From assembly GCA_030765235.1 (NCBI GenBank), contig JAVCCW010000010.1, forward strand, positions 94,907-158,906: DNA of 64,000 bases, written 5' to 3'. Shown piece by piece: positions 27,463-64,000 of this stretch. The stretch is from Candidatus Gorgyraea atricola. GTDB lineage: Bacteria > Omnitrophota > Gorgyraeia > Gorgyraeales > Gorgyraeaceae. Made by a program: the position numbers and the translations under genes. The notes beneath the pieces were generated by a model. That model was not told where the DNA came from and searched no databases. It saw only the letters and a list, made by a program, of their open reading frames with translations. How positions within the stretch are numbered: the stretch's first letter is position 1; each line of letters begins with the position of its first letter.

Positions 27463-27700
27463 AAAAAACTCTTAATCCATTATAGTGGATTAAGAGTTGC
27501 ACCCTGTTTTCTTCACCCTTTATGACTGCCCTCAGCAGCTCCCTGTTATAGGGAAAAATATATTGTAAGGTTTTCTGACTTAAGGCCGTCTACTCTCTGC
27601 GCCTTCTCGTCCGCCCAAAGCGAACAATGGCTTATTGCAGATTTCGTAACCTATTACAGCAGCGGGGCTGCGCTGGACTCCCACCAGCTTCCCTTAAACA
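27463..27700 (-). promoter_or_regulatory. cobalamin (B12) riboswitch with terminator expression platform
   Basis: Minus strand AAGGGAAGCTGGTGGGAGTCCAGCGCAGCCCCGCTGCTGTAATAGG matches the AAGGGAA..GGTG..A.TCC..GC.G.CCCGC..CTGTAA core; GAAGGC further on. Terminator aactcttaatccactataatggattaagagtttttt at 27463-27499. Candidate promoter TTGACT-17-TATAAA at about 27740-27770. Confidence 0.75.
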
Positions 27701-27771
27701 ACATAATATGAAATATTCAATTGTAAATATTTTATACCCTAATTACTAAAACAAGTCAACAAAAAAATACC

Positions 27772-55821: not shown

Positions 55822-56772
55822 CTATTTTTTACCCCTGCGGTCAAGCAATTTCTTCACGACCAACATATATCCCAATATCTTTAACTCATATAATACTATA
55901 AAAGGTAGATTCAATAATATGCCACGTAATGAATCATTCTTTTTTATGCATAAGTATCTATTCTTAATATACCTTCTCTTCAACTCCTCAGAAATACGGT
56001 GGACTAGGGGTTGGGGTGTCCTGTGAGTGGGAGGATCCACACCGGGCGGAGGGGCCCACGAACAGGATACCCCGACCTCTAGTCCACCCGCAGTTCCCCC
56101 TCTCACATGATACGCTAGTGCCTTCGGGTTATAATATGCTTTCCAATCCTTCTTCTGTGCTCTCCAACATAAGTCTAGATCTTCGTAATACATGTCAAAT
56201 CTCTCGTCAAAATATCCATATTTATCCCTTACATTCTTCAGCATGCTTTTTCTTAAAAAAGCGCATGCGCCGCTGGCTCCAAATACATATCCTGGCTCAT
56301 CATACTGCCCCTTGTCTACCTTTCCATAGCCTCTCTCGACTGGCTTTCTATTCTTGCCTAAAAATAATCCTGTTGAATCTATGGTCTTTTTATCCATTCT
56401 TAATATTTTTCCGCTTACCATGCCGATTCGCGTATCAAGACCTATCGCCAATAGAACCTGCCTCAGATAATCTTTGTCCAACACGCAGTCGTTATTCAGG
56501 CATAAGACAAAATTCCCTTTTGACGCATCAATGCCCTGATTCTGCGCTTTACAAAAAAGAAGGTTGCTGGTATTTCTGATCAATTGAACATCCGAATAAT
56601 ACATGGCTACCATCTCGATACTGCCATCGGTAGAGGCATTATCTACAACAATAGTCTCAATATCCTGAAAATTCTGTCCCCTTACGGAGTCCAGACACTG
56701 CCTCAACAAATCTTTCCTGTTGTAATTGACAATTATTATTGATATCATAGATTTAATTATATCATGAATCAA
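55822..56772 (-). CDS. GT2 glycosyltransferase carrying an in-frame 93-nt GC-rich palindromic insertion
   Basis: N-terminal IIIVNYNRKDLL..VVDNASTDGS; C-terminal ..RRYIKNRYLCIKKNDSLRGILLNLPF.. is normal GT2 tail. Between them lies a foreign 31-aa segment AGGLEVGVSCSWAPPPGVDPPTHRTPQPLVH. Confidence 0.8.
   Translation of the reverse strand: MIHDIIKSMISIIIVNYNRKDLLRQCLDSVRGQNFQDIETIVVDNASTDGSIEMVAMYYSDVQLIRNTSNLLFCKAQNQGIDASKGNFVLCLNNDCVLDKDYLRQVLLAIGLDTRIGMVSGKILRMDKKTIDSTGLFLGKNRKPVERGYGKVDKGQYDEPGYVFGASGACAFLRKSMLKNVRDKYGYFDERFDMYYEDLDLCWRAQKKDWKAYYNPKALAYHVRGGTAGGLEVGVSCSWAPPPGVDPPTHRTPQPLVHRISEELKRRYIKNRYLCIKKNDSLRGILLNLPFIVLYELKILGYMLVVKKLLDRRGKK
55997..56089. repeat. GC-rich palindromic element inside GT2 CDS (arms cggtggactaggggttggggtgtcctgt / acaggataccccgacctctagtccaccc)
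   Basis: 93 nt = 31 codons; locally very GC-rich against an AT-rich host gene; reads through in frame. Confidence 0.85.
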
Positions 56773-57945
56773 ACAGAAACCAAACCCTTATCACCCCTCA
56801 TATTTATTCCCTTATTATCCCTTATCTTCATCCGGCCTTTCATCTCTGGCCTTGCATACCCGGCCTTTGAGATGTTTTATGAAAACATCTTGATATTCCT
56901 TGCTATCATGATCTTATTCATGGAAAGATCCAGATTTAAACTGTATCCTAAAAATTTCAGTAACTTCCCTGTAATATTCCTATTATTTGCCTATGCTATT
57001 TCAACTATATTCTCGATCAACATACAAAACTCTATTAGAGAAACGCTTAAATTCATCAGTTTCTTTGCCATATTCTTTATGGTTTCCCAATCTGATGAAA
57101 AACAAAAGAAACTGCTGCTAAAGACCATTGTCATAGCTGCTTCAATAATAAGTCTGTATTCAATATACCAGTACTTCTGGGGATATGGACGCACACTAGA
57201 TTATCTACAAAAAACCAACAGCGATTTTCTCTCCACCTCTTCCTATGCCCGCGACATCCTGCTCTCAAAACGCGCAATAGGAACATTTCCCTCTCCGAAT
57301 ATCTTAGCTGGATACTTGATAATAATGTTTTTTCTCGCAATGCACTTACAGCGTCGCATTTCGCTAGTTCTAATCACTGCTGCGTTAATCCTCACTAAAT
57401 CCATGGGCGCGTGGTTAAGTCTTATTGCTGCACTGATCTACCTCGGTAACTTCGTAAGTTACCCAAAGGGTAACTTACGAAGTTACCGAGGTAAGTTAAT
57501 GGCAGTATTAATCGTAGCTATACTATGTTTTATCCTCGTGAATCGCTGGGAACGCCTGATGAACATGGAAAACCCGCAAAATTCCATTACCCAGCGCCTA
57601 AACTACTGGCGCACAGCCATAGCCATAATAAAAGATCAGGCTATTTTTGGAGTCGGACCTGGTAATTTTCAAGAAGTCTTCTTGGGGCATAAGGTAGGCT
57701 TAGGCACAGATACAAGATACGCGCATAACATATTTCTTCACATATGGTCAGAAATAGGTATCTTAGGTCTTGTAGGAGTCTTTTACCTTATTATTAATTT
57801 TTTCAGAAAAGCCAGATCTCAATCCAGCTATAGATTTATACTGTGCGGCGGGCTTGTGTTTATCCTGCATAATCTCATAGATAATACCTTTTTCATGCCT
57901 CAAGCTGCACTCTTCTGGTGGATATTACTGGCTTCTAAGGAATAG
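56764..57945 (+). CDS. O-antigen ligase/polymerase family membrane protein (Wzy_C domain)
   Basis: 393 aa polytopic membrane protein. Contains in-frame perfect palindrome at 57441-57491. Confidence 0.7.
   Translation: MNQTETKPLSPLIFIPLLSLIFIRPFISGLAYPAFEMFYENILIFLAIMILFMERSRFKLYPKNFSNFPVIFLLFAYAISTIFSINIQNSIRETLKFISFFAIFFMVSQSDEKQKKLLLKTIVIAASIISLYSIYQYFWGYGRTLDYLQKTNSDFLSTSSYARDILLSKRAIGTFPSPNILAGYLIIMFFLAMHLQRRISLVLITAALILTKSMGAWLSLIAALIYLGNFVSYPKGNLRSYRGKLMAVLIVAILCFILVNRWERLMNMENPQNSITQRLNYWRTAIAIIKDQAIFGVGPGNFQEVFLGHKVGLGTDTRYAHNIFLHIWSEIGILGLVGVFYLIINFFRKARSQSSYRFILCGGLVFILHNLIDNTFFMPQAALFWWILLASKE
57441..57491. repeat. Perfect 24-bp-arm palindrome inside O-antigen ligase CDS (cctcggtaacttcgtaagttaccc-aaa-gggtaacttacgaagttaccgagg)
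   Basis: 51 nt = 17 codons encoding LGNFVSYPKGNLRSYRG; words ttacgaag/cttcgtaa relate it to family B. Confidence 0.85.
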
Positions 57946-59603
57946 ACCCTATCCACGGCCATAAGTGTCGATGATCTATGAGAAACAGTAATCAGGCTTA
58001 TTTCTCCAAGGAGCTGTTTTATATTCAATAATATCTTTTCCTCGCTGGCTGAATCCACAGAAGACATTGCCTCATCAAGGATCAGGATCCTGGGCCTTTT
58101 AATTATTGCACGGGCAATGGCGATCCTTTGCTTTTGTCCTTCTGATATCTTGCAGGCATTTTCACCTATAACCGTTTCATATCCATCAGGAAGATTATTT
58201 ATAAAATCATCGGCCAAAGAATGCCTGGCGGCCTCACATATCTCAGCCCTACTCGCGTTCTTTTTTCCATAGGCAATATTGTTCGCTACAGTATCGTTGA
58301 ACAAAAAAGGTTCCTGCAATGCCATGCCGATCTGTTCTTTTAGGCTCCCCATCTTCATGTCCTTGATATTGACACCATCAATAAGGATCTCTCCCTGCCA
58401 TGGATCATAAAGCCTTACGATTAAATTCAATAATGTGGTCTTGCCAGCGCCTGAAGGCGCAAAAAAACCAATATGCTTATTGCCTTCTATTGAAAAACTT
58501 AGATCCTTTAGGATAGGCTTGCCCGGCATATATCCAAAGCTAACGTTTTTAAATTGTATATTGCCTTGACTGAAAACAATGTTTCTTGCGCCTTTGTCCT
58601 CAATGACCATCCCTTCTTCATCTAAAATAGCAGCCACCCTTTGACAGGAGATAAGCCCCAATACAGCTGTTTGAAAAAATCCTACAAAGCTATTCTGCAT
58701 AGCTACTAGCTGCCCCAGGTAGACCAATATCGCTGCAAGACTTCCAAGACTCATTTCTCCCCTGATAACCATATATCCGCCGTAAAAACTAATAAGGCCT
58801 ATAATGATCTTACTCCCCGCATTCGCGGCAAAAGCGCCAAAGATATCCAGCCTTACACTGCTAAGCTCTATCTTTATATTGTCCATCAACTGCCTCAGGT
58901 ATTTCTTCGTCTCGACATTTTCTTTATTAAATACCTTAATAAGAGGGATGTGAGAAAAAAGCTCCTGAATGGATTTAAAAATATTCTGAGAATTCCCGAT
59001 CAATCTTTCCCAGACCTTCCTTCTTTTATTGATAAAATAATATGACGGTAAATAGAGGAAGGGTGTGAGAAAAAAAGCGAGGACTGCAATCCTCCAGTTA
59101 AGATGCGATATAATAATAAGGATAAGCACAAGTTTAGGAAAAAGGGCTATGGCCCGAGGAAGCGTAGTCGCAACAAGATCTTTTACCCTGCTAATATCGT
59201 GATCGATCTTATAAAGATGCTCCCCTGTGCTTTTATTTTGAAACCAGCTAAGCGGAAGGATCTCTATCTTTTTAAAAACCTTCTTGTTTAGATCAAATTT
59301 TATTCTTAATTTTACATATCTCTCTAAATATTGCCCGAACCCGTTTATAATTCCTATAACAATAAAAACTGCCCCGCCTATGATTACCAGAATGACAAAG
59401 GTCTTTAAATCCTTATTTCCTATTGCCTTATCAACGACTAATTTTGTCAAATACGGATTGATCAGCCCCAGCAATGCCCCAAAACCACTCAGGAAGATAA
59501 TTGCTGCCCATTTTTCTCTATAAGGCAAGAGTAATTTTATAAATCTTAAGAAAAGCGCCTGCTGTTTCTTGTCTAATCTTATTTTATGCCGGGAAAAATT
59601 CAT
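57900..59603 (-). CDS. ABC exporter, fused permease + ATPase (no C39 peptidase domain)
   Basis: 567 aa; 6 TM helices then Walker A GAGKTTL, LSGGQRQR, Walker B ILDEA. Confidence 0.85.
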   Translation of the reverse strand: MNFSRHKIRLDKKQQALFLRFIKLLLPYREKWAAIIFLSGFGALLGLINPYLTKLVVDKAIGNKDLKTFVILVIIGGAVFIVIGIINGFGQYLERYVKLRIKFDLNKKVFKKIEILPLSWFQNKSTGEHLYKIDHDISRVKDLVATTLPRAIALFPKLVLILIIISHLNWRIAVLAFFLTPFLYLPSYYFINKRRKVWERLIGNSQNIFKSIQELFSHIPLIKVFNKENVETKKYLRQLMDNIKIELSSVRLDIFGAFAANAGSKIIIGLISFYGGYMVIRGEMSLGSLAAILVYLGQLVAMQNSFVGFFQTAVLGLISCQRVAAILDEEGMVIEDKGARNIVFSQGNIQFKNVSFGYMPGKPILKDLSFSIEGNKHIGFFAPSGAGKTTLLNLIVRLYDPWQGEILIDGVNIKDMKMGSLKEQIGMALQEPFLFNDTVANNIAYGKKNASRAEICEAARHSLADDFINNLPDGYETVIGENACKISEGQKQRIAIARAIIKRPRILILDEAMSSVDSASEEKILLNIKQLLGEISLITVSHRSSTLMAVDRVYSLEASNIHQKSAA

Positions 59604-59605
59604 AT

Positions 59606-60760
59606 CTATTTTTTAGATGTCCTTTTGAATGTCTCAAGCGATGCAGCGCGGGCATGGGCTACTTCGCAAAAATAATCTACCGGCTTATCTAATTCTCCTG
59701 TCTCTAAATGAGCGTGTGCTGGACACCAGGTACAGAGATTGATGATAGGGCAGATCCGGCATTTCTTCAAAAAATCTTCTCTTTTTGAGCGTTTATCCCT
59801 CACCCGAAGGACAAAATTCCGATATGCTTCAAGTAATGTCCCATTCTTAAGGTCATAGACACAATCCGGATGCCAGAGCGAAGAGCAAAGTCGGAAAAAA
59901 CCGTCATAGCTTACCGCAAAACTGCCGTTGCCTGCGCCGCAATGAAAGAGATGATCACAGTTAGTGTGAGCAAAATCAGGGTCAATGAACTTGCCGCAAG
60001 ATTCTTCTAATGCCTTGAAACGTTCTGAGTCATTTTTTTCAATTGAAACTATCTCTTCAGGAAGAAGCCGCTCGGATCTTATTTCTTTATTTCTTCCTGT
60101 ATCACCGTCAAAACGAAGATGCAAAAACGGATCAAAACGGAAATAATCCTTGGTCTTTTGCCTGCAAAATTGAGAAATAACAGTTAATTCATGGATGTTT
60201 GAACGCAGGGCCATTGTCTTAAGGCGCACCTTGATCTTGTTTTTGAGCAGAAGATCTAAGCCTTTCATAAAAGCATTGAAGGAGCCTGGATTTCTGGTTA
60301 CCTTCTCATAGGTTCCTTTAGTCGCGCCGTATACTGTTACTTCAATGTTGCGCGGCGGGTACCTTTTGAAAAATTTAATGTGTCTTTCTGTTATCAATGT
60401 AGCGTTAGTAAAAACCGAGACTAAAAGGCCTTTTTTCTTGAGATGCAGATATATATCAAAAAAATCTTCCCTTAAAAGAGGTTCGCCTCCTGTAATCAGG
60501 CACCACAATGCTCCTAAATCAGCTGCCTCGTCAATGATATTCTTTATCTGCTGAAACTTGAGCTCTTTTGATTTCGCGCAAGAATCTCCTGCTGGTAAAT
60601 TTATATAGCAGTGTCTGCAATTATTGTTACAGCGCGCGGCAATCTCTAAGTCAAAAGAGATAAGCTGCCTATTATTCTTCATCTTGTTCCAAAGGGAAAA
60701 CCGAGGCAAGGAAACTCGGGACACAAAAGATCTTTTCATGATATCAAACTCTTGATCCAA
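59606..60760 (-). CDS. radical SAM/SPASM-domain peptide maturase (paralog 1)
   Basis: CNNNCRHC (Cx3Cx2C), GGEPLL, C-terminal Cys-rich SPASM region ..CRICPIINLCTWCPAHAH.. Confidence 0.85.
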   Translation of the reverse strand: MDQEFDIMKRSFVSRVSLPRFSLWNKMKNNRQLISFDLEIAARCNNNCRHCYINLPAGDSCAKSKELKFQQIKNIIDEAADLGALWCLITGGEPLLREDFFDIYLHLKKKGLLVSVFTNATLITERHIKFFKRYPPRNIEVTVYGATKGTYEKVTRNPGSFNAFMKGLDLLLKNKIKVRLKTMALRSNIHELTVISQFCRQKTKDYFRFDPFLHLRFDGDTGRNKEIRSERLLPEEIVSIEKNDSERFKALEESCGKFIDPDFAHTNCDHLFHCGAGNGSFAVSYDGFFRLCSSLWHPDCVYDLKNGTLLEAYRNFVLRVRDKRSKREDFLKKCRICPIINLCTWCPAHAHLETGELDKPVDYFCEVAHARAASLETFKRTSKK

Positions 60761-61224
60761 AAAATAAAAGATAATAATCTTGTCTTGCTCAAAAAAGCAA
60801 TTATAAACCGTTCCAGGCCAAAACCAAGTTGAGTTTTCCTGCCTGCCCTTTCTACTTTCGACACAACGCCTAAAATGTCCTTCATTGGAATCAAACCGTC
60901 AGTCTCAACAGAGTTATCTCCTTTTATAAGATAATAATCGCCTTTTTTACCTACTACTCTATGAATAACAAGCCTCCCTGTCTGAGCGTGGATAAAAGCT
61001 ACTGGCTTACCAAAACCTATTGGATGATCAAGCAGCGGGGAAATAGTAACTACATCGCCATTTTTAATAAACGGTGACATGCTAAAACCCATAGCCTTAA
61101 ACCTAAAAGGAATTCTCATGCCAGTGGCAGCTTGAAGCAATCCAGTCATTGCTTCCCCTGAAAGAGAAAGTTCTTCTTCAGGAACTACGCAATATCCTGC
61201 TTTAATCTCGCTTGACTTCAACAA
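60736..61224 (-). CDS. S24/S26-family serine peptidase (candidate leader peptidase)
   Basis: 162 aa; GFSMSPFIKNGDVVTI resembles the catalytic Ser region of signal peptidase I / LexA-like peptidases. Confidence 0.6.
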   Translation of the reverse strand: MLKSSEIKAGYCVVPEEELSLSGEAMTGLLQAATGMRIPFRFKAMGFSMSPFIKNGDVVTISPLLDHPIGFGKPVAFIHAQTGRLVIHRVVGKKGDYYLIKGDNSVETDGLIPMKDILGVVSKVERAGRKTQLGFGLERFIIAFLSKTRLLSFIFWIKSLIS

Positions 61225-61504
61225 GCATTCTCCTTTTGAGTAATTCTTCGACCAGCCCTAATACATCTTTTTCTATTTCTATCTTAGATGATTCAAATTC
61301 TGCCCCCAGATCATCCGCTAAATCTTTTAAGCTTTTTTTTCCATCTATCCTGCGCCAAATTGCCTGTCCGGTCTCATTGAGACTAAATATCGCATCTTCT
61401 AAATCCGCTACCCCTGAAGTTATGGGAATAATAATAAACTCTCCTTGTATCTCTCGCGCGACTATATCTTCAGACGGTTTATAAACACTTTCGATGTGGC
61501 CCAT
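61202..61504 (-). CDS. PqqD-family peptide chaperone (RiPP recognition element)
   Basis: 100 aa; ..LNETGQAIWRRIDGKKSLKDLADDLGAEF.. typical PqqD fold signature. Confidence 0.8.
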   Translation of the reverse strand: MGHIESVYKPSEDIVAREIQGEFIIIPITSGVADLEDAIFSLNETGQAIWRRIDGKKSLKDLADDLGAEFESSKIEIEKDVLGLVEELLKRRMLVEVKRD

Positions 61505-61525
61505 AAATACCTCCTTCGTTTTCGG

Positions 61526-62698
61526 TTATTTTGTAAATTTCCTGATCCGATCCTTCCCGTCCTTGATCTCCCATGCCATTTCACCTTCTTTTATCAGGCC
61601 CAGAAATCTTGCCTGAGCATGGGCAATTTCACAATAATATTCTACCGGCGTATCTAAGGTGCCGCTTTCTAAGCAGGATTTTGCAGGACATTGCGCGCAC
61701 AGGCCTTTTAAAAAACATTTAGCACAGCGATTTAAATAATCAGGATTGATAGCTTTTATCTCTCTTACTTTTGGAAAAAAATTAATCAGCGCATCTTTAA
61801 GAGAACCCTTTTTAAGATCATAGACTGTCTCCTTCTGTCTAAGCAACATACAGGGCTGAAACATACCATAAGCATCCACGCATCCGCTGGCACGGCCGGC
61901 CCCGCAGGAAAAAAGTCTATCACCAGATGGCCGCATAAATTTTGAGCAAAATTCTTTCATATTATTAAGGTATCTATTTTTTTGGCGGGTAAGAACTCTA
62001 AGTCCCTGCTCTGGCGTAACTCTGAGTTTTTTAATTGATTCATTTTTCCGACTATCATACCTGCGCCGCAGGTTAAAAAACATAGAATAAGGCGGCGATT
62101 TGCCTATCCATGGAATATTTTTAGCCCATTTCTCGAATTCATCGATTTCATCTTTGTTAGGCGGCAGTAACGAGCTTTTCACTATAAAAGGGGTCTTTTT
62201 CTCCAGTAGTAAATTTATGCCCCGCCAGGCCGCTTCAAATGAACCGGAAACCCTGGTTACGCCTTCATACGAGGCCTTTCTCATCCCGTAAACTGTAACC
62301 TCCACTTTTTCTAAGGGCGGGATATGACTCAATAGATCAGCTAATTTAGACGTAATCAAAGTGGCATTGGTAAAAAGCAATACCTTTAAACCAAGCTTCC
62401 TCGCGAAAACATATAATTCCTCAAAATCATCCCTTAAAAGCGGCTCCCCTCCTGTAAACCGTACTGTAAGGCAATCCAGAGAAACTGCTTCCTTGAGAAT
62501 ATTTTTTATCTGACTAGTAGATAACTCTTTATCTTTGGCATTCAAATCACCTTCCGGCAGATTTATGCAGCAGTGAATACAGTTATTATTACAGCGTTCG
62601 GTAAGTTCTATATCCAAACTACCTAAAACTGGCATGCTATTCTTCCACAATAAAGCTTTACTTGTTTCCTGTTTTTTAACGTAAAGACTGCTCTTCAT
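61526..62698 (-). CDS. radical SAM/SPASM-domain peptide maturase (paralog 2)
   Basis: CNNNCIHC, GGEPLL, SPASM Cys cluster ..CAKCFLKGLCAQCPAKS..; paralogous to 59606-60760. Confidence 0.85.
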   Translation of the reverse strand: MKSSLYVKKQETSKALLWKNSMPVLGSLDIELTERCNNNCIHCCINLPEGDLNAKDKELSTSQIKNILKEAVSLDCLTVRFTGGEPLLRDDFEELYVFARKLGLKVLLFTNATLITSKLADLLSHIPPLEKVEVTVYGMRKASYEGVTRVSGSFEAAWRGINLLLEKKTPFIVKSSLLPPNKDEIDEFEKWAKNIPWIGKSPPYSMFFNLRRRYDSRKNESIKKLRVTPEQGLRVLTRQKNRYLNNMKEFCSKFMRPSGDRLFSCGAGRASGCVDAYGMFQPCMLLRQKETVYDLKKGSLKDALINFFPKVREIKAINPDYLNRCAKCFLKGLCAQCPAKSCLESGTLDTPVEYYCEIAHAQARFLGLIKEGEMAWEIKDGKDRIRKFTK

Positions 62699-62721: not shown

Positions 62722-62913
62722 CTAAGAAGTTACATTCCCATCACAGTCAGCACAAACTTCCGGCATCTTACAAACGCTGTATGCTGTGCCTGCGAAGATG
62801 CTACTCTCTTCATCCTTTTCCTTGCAAGCTATCAGAACACCCTCCTCTGGTTTGCCTCTCATCAGCACAATCAGTTTTGGTCTCTCCCATTTTTTCTTCG
62901 CTTCTCTCTTCAT
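62722..62913 (-). CDS. RiPP precursor peptide B (leader MKREAKKKWERPKLIVL..GKPEEGVL; 4-Cys core ending -VTS)
   Basis: GGAGG 5 nt upstream of ATG 62913 (ORF track starts 12 nt earlier at 62925); immediately upstream of the rSAM gene; paralog of the 62959-63150 peptide. Confidence 0.75.
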   Translation of the reverse strand: MKREAKKKWERPKLIVLMRGKPEEGVLIACKEKDEESSIFAGTAYSVCKMPEVCADCDGNVTS

Positions 62914-62958: not shown

Positions 62959-63150
62959 TCACGACGTCACAAGGACGTCACACCTCAGGTTAGCGCATAG
63001 ATCCACTCTAAAACATGATGCAAACGCGTTATCAGGGCCGATCATGCCGGGAAAAGTCTTGCAGCTCTGCAACACCCACTCTTCAGGTTTCCCTTTGGTT
63101 AAAATAATCAGCTTCGGCTTTTCCCATTTTTTCTTAGCTTCTTTCTTCAT
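62959..63150 (-). CDS. RiPP precursor peptide A (leader MKKEAKKKWEKPKLIIL..GKPEEWVL; 4-Cys core ending -VTS)
   Basis: Conserved leader with peptide B at protein and DNA level; alternative upstream start at 63174. Confidence 0.75.
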   Translation of the reverse strand: MKKEAKKKWEKPKLIILTKGKPEEWVLQSCKTFPGMIGPDNAFASCFRVDLCANLRCDVLVTS

Positions 63151-63180
63151 CTTTACCGCTTCCTCTGCATCCAACCTGCT

Positions 63181-64000
63181 CTACATCTGCCTCAAGGCAT
63201 CCACTATTTCTCCGCTTTTGTCAAAACGTAGAACATAAACAGGGACTCTTGCGGCTAAATTATCTATAACCAACAATGTCTTCTCCCACCAATCTACAGT
63301 TACAAATGGCCTTATCAAACAAGATAAGAGTTTTCTCACTATCTCTTTCTTGTCCTCAATACGCAAAATTTTATTTTCCAATGACTTCTCCAGAAAGAAA
63401 ATAGCTTTCAGCGCAGCAGAATTACTTGAGATATCAGGTATATCGCCGTGACTCCACGTCCCATAGATCCTAAACTTGCCTGCTTTTCTTCTTACGATCA
63501 TCCTGTCATCGCAAAGTATCTCGGCTTTTCCTTTTAACATTGTTGCCATTGTAGACTTACCTGCTTCAGAGTGCCCGGCAAAAAGCAGGCCCTTGCCTTC
63601 AAAATTAACACCGCAGGAATGCAAATAGCAGCCTTCTCTATCAGCTAAAATTCTTGCAAAGAGTATCTGATCAGTAGGGAACATAGTCAGAGAGTGCAGA
63701 TTCCCTCTTAAGAACATTTCTTTCTTATCGTTATAGATCCTGGCCCTGGTATGGCCTGAGTTAAATGTCGCAACGCAATGTGGACTTTTTCTATTCCCAT
63801 CTGGATAAATAACCCCAGAATAAATCCATGAGCCGTTATTTTTATATATTGCCCAAGGGGACCTGCAGTAAACCTCTTCGCCAAAATTCCTGCCGTTTAA
63901 ATCCGGCAGAGAAAAATGATGCCGGATATAAATAGTATCTTCTCTATGTCCATCAACCTCAAATTTTTTGAATTTGGAATGGAATGTTTGCTCATTTATC
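63181..64000 (-). CDS. HPr-kinase-like P-loop kinase (open reading frame continues beyond right window edge)
   Basis: GHSEAGKST P-loop resembling the HprK C-domain GxSGxGKS; the frame stays open upstream of the first Met to the window end, so the N-terminus is probably outside the window. Confidence 0.65.
   Translation of the reverse strand, partial: INEQTFHSKFKKFEVDGHREDTIYIRHHFSLPDLNGRNFGEEVYCRSPWAIYKNNGSWIYSGVIYPDGNRKSPHCVATFNSGHTRARIYNDKKEMFLRGNLHSLTMFPTDQILFARILADREGCYLHSCGVNFEGKGLLFAGHSEAGKSTMATMLKGKAEILCDDRMIVRRKAGKFRIYGTWSHGDIPDISSNSAALKAIFFLEKSLENKILRIEDKKEIVRKLLSCLIRPFVTVDWWEKTLLVIDNLAARVPVYVLRFDKSGEIVDALRQM

Follow-up and report, generated by a model that had tools for sequence, protein, structure and literature searches.

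What is made by a group of genes in which two paralogous radical S-adenosylmethionine (rSAM)/SPASM enzymes flank a PqqD protein and a peptidase of the S24/S26 type? The question is raised by positions 59606-62698, on the minus strand, of a 64,000-nucleotide (nt) stretch of DNA from Candidatus Gorgyraea atricola, hereafter the window, whose sequence provided the open reading frames (ORFs) and translations used here. A preliminary description of this interval had proposed that it matures a ribosomally synthesized, post-translationally modified peptide (RiPP), with the two paralogs serving either one precursor each or the same peptide in succession. The interval is real and holds four ORFs placed as described, encoding rSAM2, an S24/S26-like peptidase, PqqD and rSAM1, but it leaves out two precursor genes, an HprK-like gene and an ABC exporter of the same operon. 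We put the probability at roughly 75% that the whole is an eight-gene RiPP operon making cysteine-crosslinked, probably phosphorylated peptides. In operon order, its genes are an rSAM3-HprK-like fusion, two 63-residue precursors, rSAM1, PqqD, the peptidase, rSAM2 and the ABC exporter:

63181..64000, minus strand: rSAM3-HprK-related (ScmC-like) fusion, C-terminal part; the full gene encodes 652 residues and reaches to about 65139
62959..63150, minus strand: precursor peptide A, 63 residues from its ATG, MKKEAKKKWEKPKLIILTKGKPEEWVLQSCKTFPGMIGPDNAFASCFRVDLCANLRCDVLVTS; ORF with the family leader and tail motifs
62722..62913, minus strand: precursor peptide B, 63 residues from its ATG, MKREAKKKWERPKLIVLMRGKPEEGVLIACKEKDEESSIFAGTAYSVCKMPEVCADCDGNVTS; ORF with a GGAGG Shine-Dalgarno sequence upstream
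61526..62698, minus strand: rSAM1, radical-SAM/SPASM enzyme of clade R1, 390 residues (Pfam Radical_SAM)
61202..61504, minus strand: discrete PqqD-type RiPP recognition element (RRE), 100 residues (PF05402, E=2.4e-15)
60736..61224, minus strand: soluble signal peptidase I (SpI)-like serine peptidase (S26B, endoplasmic reticulum (ER)/archaeal-type), predicted leader peptidase, 162 residues
59606..60760, minus strand: rSAM2, radical-SAM/SPASM enzyme of clade R2, 384 residues (Pfam Radical_SAM)
57900..59603, minus strand: MsbA/HlyB-type ABC exporter, fused transmembrane and nucleotide-binding domains (Pfam ABC_membrane and ABC_tran)

These genes are tightly packed or overlapping. The TTG start of the peptidase overlaps the 3' end of PqqD, rSAM2 likely starts at the ATG at 60739, overlapping the peptidase stop codon (ATGA), and the ATG of the exporter lies 2 nt after the rSAM2 stop. 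Shine-Dalgarno-like sequences precede the ATG codons of both 63-residue precursor ORFs. The HprK-related ORF runs off the window edge without a start codon among the first 94 codons that are visible, and we extended the window through a metagenome contig (L071) found by a DNA-pattern scan of metagenome contigs. L071 matches window positions 63101-64000 with 0 mismatches in 900 nt and runs 1280 nt further; in it, the fusion gene extends about 1139 nt past the window end to give the full 652-residue ORF (L071:81-2039, minus strand), with about 140 nt of non-coding DNA upstream. Pfam places Radical_SAM at residues 26-180 and Hpr_kinase_C at residues 505-561 of the fusion. Since L071 shows an rSAM paralog N-terminal to the HprK-related domain, the system has three rSAM paralogs, not the two that had been described. 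This third rSAM, the HprK-like kinase domain and a conserved C-terminal Ser/Thr of the precursors were all absent from the preliminary description.

The paralogy of rSAM1 and rSAM2 was confirmed (41% identity over 381 residues, E=7e-88), and so were the motifs reported for them: CNNNCIHC in rSAM1, CNNNCRHC in rSAM2, GGEPLL in both and Cys-rich SPASM tails. rSAM3, the N-terminal 380 residues of the fusion, has CNNNCRHC, GGEPML and CX2CX5CX2C, and shares 33% identity with rSAM1 (E=3e-51) and 31% with rSAM2 (E=2e-57). All of 40 rSAM1 and 47 rSAM2 orthologues keep CX3CX2C and seven SPASM cysteines (C..C..CX2CX5CX2C..C). We place rSAM1 and rSAM2 among the rSAM/SPASM enzymes on these cysteine motifs, which recur in rSAM3; the Pfam SPASM model gave no match to window proteins at E<=0.01. 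In a neighbour-joining tree of the rSAM1 orthologues (n=40), the rSAM2 orthologues (n=47) and the N-terminal domains of ~650-residue fusions (n=27), the three paralogs form reciprocally monophyletic clades, R1, R2 and R3, with R1 and R2 as sisters. Median identity is 54-57% inside clades and 36% for R1 vs R2, and in this comparison R1 and R2 are anciently diverged, co-occurring clades. The radical-SAM motif starts at residue 36-44, so the rSAMs carry no N-terminal RRE domain, which would be compatible with one shared, discrete PqqD. Their best NCBIfam matches (AhbD, NirJ/NirJ2, ScmE/F, StsB, ACGX and PapB) score about 60-100 bits vs cutoffs of 340-650, and the PDB sequence matches (SkfB, PqqE, MoaA and cytosylglucuronate decarboxylase) have E of 1e-9 or weaker. 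We rejected an assignment to any one characterised maturase; AhbD/NirJ, ScmE/F, StsB, PapB, SkfB, PqqE and MoaA are all similarly weak.

The two precursors of the window are 45% identical over 56 residues. An NCBI 'hypothetical protein' (P0405) of Candidatus Gorgyraea atricola, phylum Omnitrophota, has the sequence of precursor A (100% identity), and 63-residue genes are called elsewhere for precursor A (L070) and precursor B (L068 and L069). We assembled 59 unique precursor sequences and numbered positions from an invariant Trp (W0). In this family, the leader reads WxKPxLIVLxRGxPEExVLxxCK, the core varies and the C-terminus is C-x5-6-[S/T]. Leader conservation is high at W0 (59/59), P+3 (58/59), L+5 (56/59), L+8 (49/59), E+15 (56/59), L+18 (54/59), C+21 (55/59) and K+22 (54/59); V/I+7, R/K+10 and V+17 are conserved as well, and the core downstream of 'CK' is hypervariable. 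The C-terminal residue is Ser (44) or Thr (11) in 55/59 precursors; in these 55, the stretch after the last Cys is 6 residues long in 42, 7 in 10 and 8 in 2. A precursor profile search returned 93 clusters, every named one a 'hypothetical protein'. The WxxPxL of the leader matches the [Y/W]xxPx[L/V/I...] motif that is bound by the RREs of lasso, pyrroloquinoline quinone (PQQ) and linear polyphosphorylated peptide (LPP) pathways (PMC13381572), and the window PqqD matches the LPP element LppB weakly (E=2e-4, 17% identity).

How far this arrangement extends was assessed in one genome per species (185,579 species), annotating six-frame ORFs in the flanks against the window proteins. The peptidase occurs in 63 species, from Omnitrophota, Thermodesulfobacteriota and other 'delta' lineages, Aminicenantes/Acidobacteriota, Chloroflexota, Planctomycetia, Bacillota, Actinomycetota, Nitrospiraceae and Margulisiibacteriota to the archaeal Methanomicrobiales/Methanoregula. 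The recurrent gene order is HprK-like, rSAM1, PqqD, peptidase, rSAM2; the precursor genes, one or more per locus, vary in position. Among the 34 loci with enough flanking sequence, 28 have PqqD, rSAM1, rSAM2 and the HprK-like gene all present at >=40% identity; rSAM2 lies directly downstream of the peptidase in 28/34 and PqqD directly upstream in 20/34. Loci short of all four partners at this threshold carry more distant rSAM, PqqD and HprK-like neighbours. The earlier reading as a RiPP-type maturation cassette is supported.

The HprK-like protein is fused to rSAM3 in 27 loci and occurs in a short, unfused form of about 300 residues in 17 (about 60% fused), and the precursors differ between these locus types. 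At fusion loci, with three rSAMs, 29/30 precursors have >=4 Cys, vs 4/15 at short-type loci with two rSAMs, where the other 11 have 3 Cys. The extra Cys of fusion-locus precursors typically lies 2-5 residues before the last one (C-x2-5-C-x5-6-S/T). One apparent exception, L050, has a further 652-residue rSAM-containing ORF adjoining its 4-Cys precursor. Only a single precursor is detectable in 33/44 loci with both rSAM1 and rSAM2. Because Cys count follows rSAM count and most loci have one precursor, we infer that each paralog acts on one post-'CK' Cys of the same peptide. Between the two possibilities first raised, this favours sequential crosslinks over one enzyme per precursor, with three enzymes rather than two.

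Several loci depart from the recurrent layout. L050 and L066 are variant cassettes in which three or four divergent precursors are interleaved with biosynthetic genes, and at L050 another S26-like gene and another ScmC-like gene form a second, distant pair; such layouts suggest that the system expanded by modules. At L040:7938-14615 and L058:4664-11943, the SpI-like peptidase family occurs with other rSAM/SPASM proteins (up to four), PqqD and a protein resembling 'HprK-related kinase B'. The module of peptidase, RRE and kinase thus appears to be common to several rSAM RiPP subfamilies.

We then considered what the S24/S26-like protein does. Its single-model matches are weak: PF00717 (Peptidase_S24, E=0.0022) is the sole Pfam match, and TIGR02228 (33.4 bits vs cutoff 51.85, E=3.7e-8) and TIGR02227 (17.7 vs cutoff 47, E=0.0025) stay below threshold. 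A search of 5.8 billion proteins returned 160 clusters of homologues of about 170 residues, named, where annotated, 'signal peptidase I' or 'S24/S26 family peptidase', and a profile search of 1.84 billion representatives gave 707 matches at E<=1e-30. In 25 diverse homologues, G46, S48, M49, S50, P51, F52, H88, R89, G102 and D103 are invariant, as are the motifs GFSMSP, HR and GD, and D109 is conserved at >=90%; S48, H88 and D109 are the predicted catalytic residues, the triad of ER/archaeal-type signal peptidases. The closest solved relatives of the family profile are SEC11C and SEC11A, with SM.P, HRV and GDN aligned, and the general base position is a His (HRV) that aligns with SEC11 and LppS. 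In an AlphaFold2 (AF2) model (predicted local distance difference test (pLDDT) 79.5), an N-terminal amphipathic helix (23-35) precedes a beta core (40-131), which is followed by two C-terminal helices; Foldseek matched it to SEC11A/C, SpsB, the C-terminal domains of LexA, UmuD' and lambda CI, and the non-catalytic SipA of S. pyogenes. The profile match to SEC11A/C, the signal-peptidase fold of this model and the homology to LppS set out below uphold the S24/S26 assignment despite the weak single models. An N-terminal transmembrane (TM) anchor is absent, with a Kyte-Doolittle 19-residue maximum of 0.58 over residues 1-45 and <1.1 across the family. Longer SpI-like family members have the peptidase domain at one end (P0346, 598 residues; P0274, P0294, P0319 and P0332, about 340 residues) and may be fusions to other cassette components.

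The most informative comparison is with LppS. SpI-like peptidases were undescribed in RiPP pathways before this enzyme (Popov et al., Nat Commun 2026, PMC13381572), and the preliminary description was right to call such a leader peptidase atypical; this report of May 2026 is the single experimental precedent. Using the LppS sequence from Supplementary Data 1 of PMC13381572, we found 33% identity to the window peptidase over 90 residues (BLASTP E=1e-12), and the family profile aligns to LppS with an hhalign probability of 98.4% over 111 columns, N-terminal helix included. S48, H88 and D109 align to LppS S29, H68 and D93; the window protein is thus an SpI-like peptidase with a Ser/His/Asp triad, homologous to LppS. 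In the LPP pathway, leader removal by LppS requires LppB, the mutations S29A, H68A and D93A abolish this RRE-dependent cleavage, and the N-terminal helix of LppS touches the RRE-leader sheet (PMC13381572). LppS processes unphosphorylated LPP precursor poorly, and phosphorylation of core Ser3 by the kinase LppK promotes cleavage (PMC13381572). Given the missing TM anchor, the cross-phylum synteny with PqqD and the rSAMs, and the LppS homology with a shared triad, the S26-like protein is most likely the leader peptidase.

Where it would cut is harder to say. LppS cuts 15 residues past the Tyr of YxxP, in FET↓A (PMC13381572). The equivalent region of the window family is P13-E14-E15-[A/S]16, with E+15 in 54/55 and a small residue at +16 in most sequences; by analogy, the neighbourhood of PEE[A/S]↓VL is a tentative candidate for the cut. 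Cleavage immediately ahead of Cys+21 is possible, but placing the site there by a small -1/-3 rule was rejected, as +20 is not limited to small residues and may also be H, N, Y or F.

The HprK-like domain of the fusion matches ScmC best among NCBIfam models (TIGR04249, E=5.6e-9, 35.7 bits vs cutoff 125), followed by HprK-related kinase B (E=2.7e-7) and HPr(Ser) kinase (E=1e-4). It is represented in 1347 database clusters, of which all named ones are 'hypothetical protein' and all have a precomputed match to PF27840 (ScmC), a family also precomputed on an 80%-identical orthologue of the window protein. A PDB sequence search with the domain gave no match at E<=1, and Foldseek with its AF2 model (pLDDT 87.4) returned ATP-dependent phosphoenolpyruvate carboxykinase and the HprK/P structures 1knx, 1ko7, 1kkl, 2qmh and 3tqf. 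The domain has the predicted P-loop fold of HprK/P, and in the family the P-loop G142-x-S-x-x-G-K148-S-T, H127 and C163-D164-D165-R166 are invariant, which conserves a His, a Lys and two Asp residues. The H-21-K-16/17-DD spacing is what we take to be the catalytic constellation of L. casei HprK/P (His140, Lys161, Asp178/179). HprK-related kinases of lasso-peptide clusters have a His-Lys-Asp-Asp motif and phosphorylate an 'extremely conserved' C-terminal Ser of the precursor (PMC9266682). Since the HprK-like residues are conserved and the lasso kinases target a C-terminal Ser, the conserved C-terminal Ser/Thr of the precursors is, by this analogy, the best candidate for phosphorylation here. 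The fusion of the kinase to rSAM3 would fit the location of the rSAM3-associated Cys in the same C-terminal tail.

Together, these observations lead us to propose the following pathway. The discrete PqqD would bind the leader WxKPxLIVLxRGxPEExVL of the two 63-residue precursors, and rSAM1, rSAM2 and rSAM3 would each place one site-specific crosslink at one of three core cysteines past 'CK', most likely a Cys thioether as in sacti- or ranthipeptides. The HprK-related domain would phosphorylate a Ser/Thr, the best candidate being the near-invariant C-terminal one, 6-7 residues past the last Cys. The SpI-like peptidase (Ser48/His88/Asp109) may then dock on the RRE-leader complex via its N-terminal helix and remove the leader as LppS does, probably near PEE[A/S]↓VL, and the MsbA-like ABC transporter would export the product. 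No C39 peptidase domain is present in this exporter, and the NCBIfam bacteriocin-exporter models align to it only past their own peptidase domains.

Four other explanations were weighed against this pathway, two of which concern the peptidase. Its fold, the annotation of its homologues and the SPase I models to which its weak family matches belong would all suit a housekeeping type I signal peptidase, a LepB/SipW paralog of generic specificity that is merely located in the cluster, which was also the refuting outcome foreseen by the preliminary description. Such an enzyme should have an N-terminal signal anchor, however, and this segment is missing in the window protein, with a Kyte-Doolittle maximum below 1.1 across the family; the protein falls below the curated cutoffs of both SPase I models, its gene overlaps PqqD and rSAM2, the synteny holds in 28/34 loci across bacterial phyla and archaea, and its whole length, N-terminal helix included, aligns to an RRE-dependent enzyme. 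We consider a housekeeping role extremely unlikely. The Peptidase_S24 match, alone in Pfam, and the Foldseek matches to LexA, UmuD', lambda CI and SipA could instead point to a LexA/UmuD/CI-like self-cleaving regulator, or to a non-catalytic SipA-like chaperone or scaffold of the maturation complex. This is very unlikely for a 162-residue protein with a single N-terminal helix and no DNA-binding domain, in which His takes the place of the Lys general base of S24 and bacterial S26A enzymes, and the invariance of Ser48 and His88, with Asp109 at >=90%, is unexpected for a non-catalytic scaffold.

The other two concern the substrate and the product. That the paralogous rSAMs serve different precursors, rather than acting in sequence on one peptide, would suit a window with two divergent precursors and more than one rSAM; it becomes quite unlikely once other loci are considered, where a single precursor usually accompanies rSAM1 and rSAM2, where R1, R2 and R3 are each monophyletic and co-occur, and where paralog number tracks the cysteines per precursor and not the number of precursors. 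The pairing of PqqD with PqqE-like rSAM/SPASM enzymes is also the logic of PQQ and mycofactocin, whose rSAM models are among the matches, and the cassette might by that logic mature a redox cofactor or an intracellular metal-binding peptide, with the cysteines as ligands or otherwise converted, for example to formylglycine. Detection of an exporter in fewer than half of the loci would agree with a product that is not exported. PQQ and mycofactocin cores are invariant, however, whereas the cores here are hypervariable between species and between paralogous precursors and keep only the Cys framework. The window operon includes an exporter gene packed 2 nt past the rSAM2 stop and has no redox-partner genes. 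We regard the cofactor explanation as unlikely, if the least so of the four.

Several points nevertheless weigh against the reading as a RiPP operon for crosslinked, phosphorylated peptides. Gene content, paralogy, catalytic-residue conservation, cross-phylum synteny, precursor motifs and Cys/rSAM covariation are observed directly, but the enzymology is wholly inferred; for none of the members is a product, a crosslink, a phosphorylation or a cleavage on record. In sequence, the rSAMs have no specific affinity to any characterised maturase, and as their NCBIfam and PDB matches are weak and unspecific, thioether chemistry is a prior and not a result. The association of Cys number with rSAM number (Fisher p=1.4e-6) is uncorrected for phylogeny and has exceptions, and an ABC exporter was seen in 14/34 loci. 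The phosphorylation site is a guess from analogy, and LppK targets an N-terminal core Ser, not the C-terminus. With +20 not restricted to small residues, the alignment does not allow the cleavage site to be placed, and the peptidase, whose C-terminal tail is moderately hydrophobic (Kyte-Doolittle 1.4, in a range of 1.2-1.9), may possibly associate with a membrane.

To relate the cluster to known systems, we compared it with five groups. The LPP clusters of Bacillota encode a precursor, the HprK-like kinase LppK, the discrete RRE LppB, the archaeal-type SpI homologue LppS, an MsbA-like exporter and an NTP-transferase (PMC13381572). LPP (LppA/K/B/S/D/N) and the window cassette share a leader with the [Y/W]xxPx[L/V] RRE-binding motif, and both adjoin polysaccharide genes. 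The LPP leader is YxxPxVLxHQxIxFETxxS, as opposed to WxKPxLIVLxRGxPEExVLxxCK, and LPP cores are Cys-free, Gly/Asn/Pro-rich and linear, whereas those of the window family have a Cys framework and a C-terminal S/T. Radical-SAM enzymes are missing from LPP (PMC13381572 has 0 occurrences of 'radical' and 'SPASM'), where phosphorylation is the only primary modification; the window cassette adds three rSAM/SPASM enzymes, with the kinase fused to one of them. No NTP-transferase ORF is found in the window operon (57900 to about 65139). LPP is restricted to Bacillota, in contrast to the window cassette, which occurs in Omnitrophota, Desulfobacterota, Acidobacteriota/Aminicenantes, Chloroflexota, Planctomycetota, Methanomicrobiales and others. 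An assignment to LPP was rejected on the different leader, the presence of rSAMs and the absence of the NTP-transferase.

The SynChlorMet (SCM) cassette (TIGR04248-04251) has the same parts list of two PqqE-like rSAM/SPASM enzymes, a PqqD homologue and the HprK-related ScmC, and SCM models are among the best matches for each cassette component. All four lie far below their cutoffs (ScmC 35.7/125, ScmD 27.5/100, ScmE 86.7/400, ScmF 77.9/400), and on these scores we rejected the SCM assignment. With parts shared but scores this low, the window operon is a sister cassette and not SCM itself, from which it further differs by the rSAM3-kinase fusion and a W-type rather than Y-type leader. In L022:11541-13418 (minus strand), a bona fide ScmC (181.8 bits vs cutoff 125) adjoins an S26-like gene (GTSMRP, HRV, GD) and an 87-residue ORF with a YQAPEV (YxxPxV) leader and a Cys-rich core. 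From this arrangement, SCM appears to use the same peptidase and leader logic, and the 87-residue ORF and the S26-like gene appear to be the SCM precursor and its leader peptidase. To our knowledge, the TIGRFAMs text lists the SCM precursor as unidentified; we found no mention of SCM in the searchable literature.

Kinases of paeninodin-type lasso clusters (PadeK, ThcoK, SyanK), compared here by their described motif (PMC9266682), are likewise HprK-related proteins in RiPP clusters with His-Lys-Asp-Asp. Their precursors have a conserved C-terminal Ser as phospho-acceptor; the window family has S/T, a candidate acceptor, in 55/59, and a W-type WxxP leader is found in both; the window cassette differs in having neither a lasso cyclase nor a B2 cysteine protease and in that its kinase is fused to, or lies beside, rSAMs. 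With the sacti- and ranthipeptide maturases (AlbA, SkfB, StsB, CteB, PapB) it shares CX3CX2C, the 7-Cys SPASM pattern, an RRE-dependent leader and a Cys-containing core, and StsB, AlbA, PapB and SkfB models or structures are among the rSAM matches, far below family cutoffs. In those systems one enzyme with its own N-terminal RRE usually makes all thioethers, whereas here two to three paralogs share a discrete PqqD, and they have no counterpart to its leader peptidase and kinase. The ER and archaeal signal peptidases (SEC11A/C, SipW; MEROPS S26B) share with the window peptidase the fold and the motifs SM.P, HRV and GDN..D; the latter differs in its soluble helix in place of the TM anchor, its small size (about 170 residues), its cluster-specific occurrence and its score below the TIGR02228 cutoff. 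We did not find this module arrangement described in curated families or the searchable literature. Judged on these sequence comparisons, the cluster is a coherent, widely distributed, unnamed RiPP system, a radical-SAM-bearing relative of LPP and a sister of SCM.

Such a system would matter in several respects. SpI-like leader peptidases have been known in RiPPs only since 2026, from one Bacillota family without rSAM chemistry, and the cassette couples the module of RRE, HprK-like kinase and SpI-like peptidase to radical-SAM crosslinking. Because it is spread over a dozen or more phyla of uncultured anaerobes, archaea among them, the module is older than reported, and more general. For a group of 'hypothetical' genes, the cassette defines a precursor family with a leader, a Cys framework and a C-terminal S/T, and it suggests which genes are the likely precursor and peptidase of the SynChlorMet cassette, long an orphan. 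Loci with two rSAMs and 3-Cys cores, next to those with three rSAMs and 4-Cys cores, offer a natural experiment on rSAM site selectivity, and the fusion of kinase and rSAM hints that phosphorylation is coupled to radical chemistry, a link so far undescribed. A bolder, tentative proposal, which we hold to be possible rather than probable, is that the cassette represents a new RiPP class with a strict division of labour, in which each rSAM makes one Cys crosslink and the rSAM3-fused kinase phosphorylates the C-terminal Ser/Thr, thereby gating RRE-dependent leader removal or joining in the formation of a C-x5-6-S/T ring. If this were true, the product would be a phosphorylated, multiply thioether-bridged peptide of Omnitrophota, sulfate reducers and methanogens, and the same logic would also account for the orphan SynChlorMet cassette.

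Beyond the operon genes themselves, a promoter/terminator scan of the operon gave counts no higher than shuffled controls, and Rfam gave no match within or upstream of it. The operon abuts polysaccharide genes (window 55822-57945), including a GT2-like glycosyltransferase; a gene for an O-antigen-ligase-like membrane protein (56764-57945, plus strand) converges on the ABC gene, with a 46-nt overlap at the 3' end of the latter. Capsule loci similarly surround the LPP clusters of Bacilli (PMC13381572). Within the glycosyltransferase ORF (55822-56772, minus strand), an 89-nt GC-rich segment (window 55999-56087) sits in frame, with 12-nt inverted repeats at its ends (GTGGACTAGGGG...CCTCTAGTCCAC). 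It folds as a near-perfect hairpin (-62.5 kcal/mol, z=-6.4), is present in one copy in the window and has no Rfam match; it looks like a small palindromic mobile or repetitive extragenic palindromic (REP)-like insertion tolerated by the coding sequence. Elsewhere in the window, and unrelated to the cluster, a cobalamin riboswitch lies at 27548-27743 on the minus strand (RF00174, 87.2 bits, E=4e-20).

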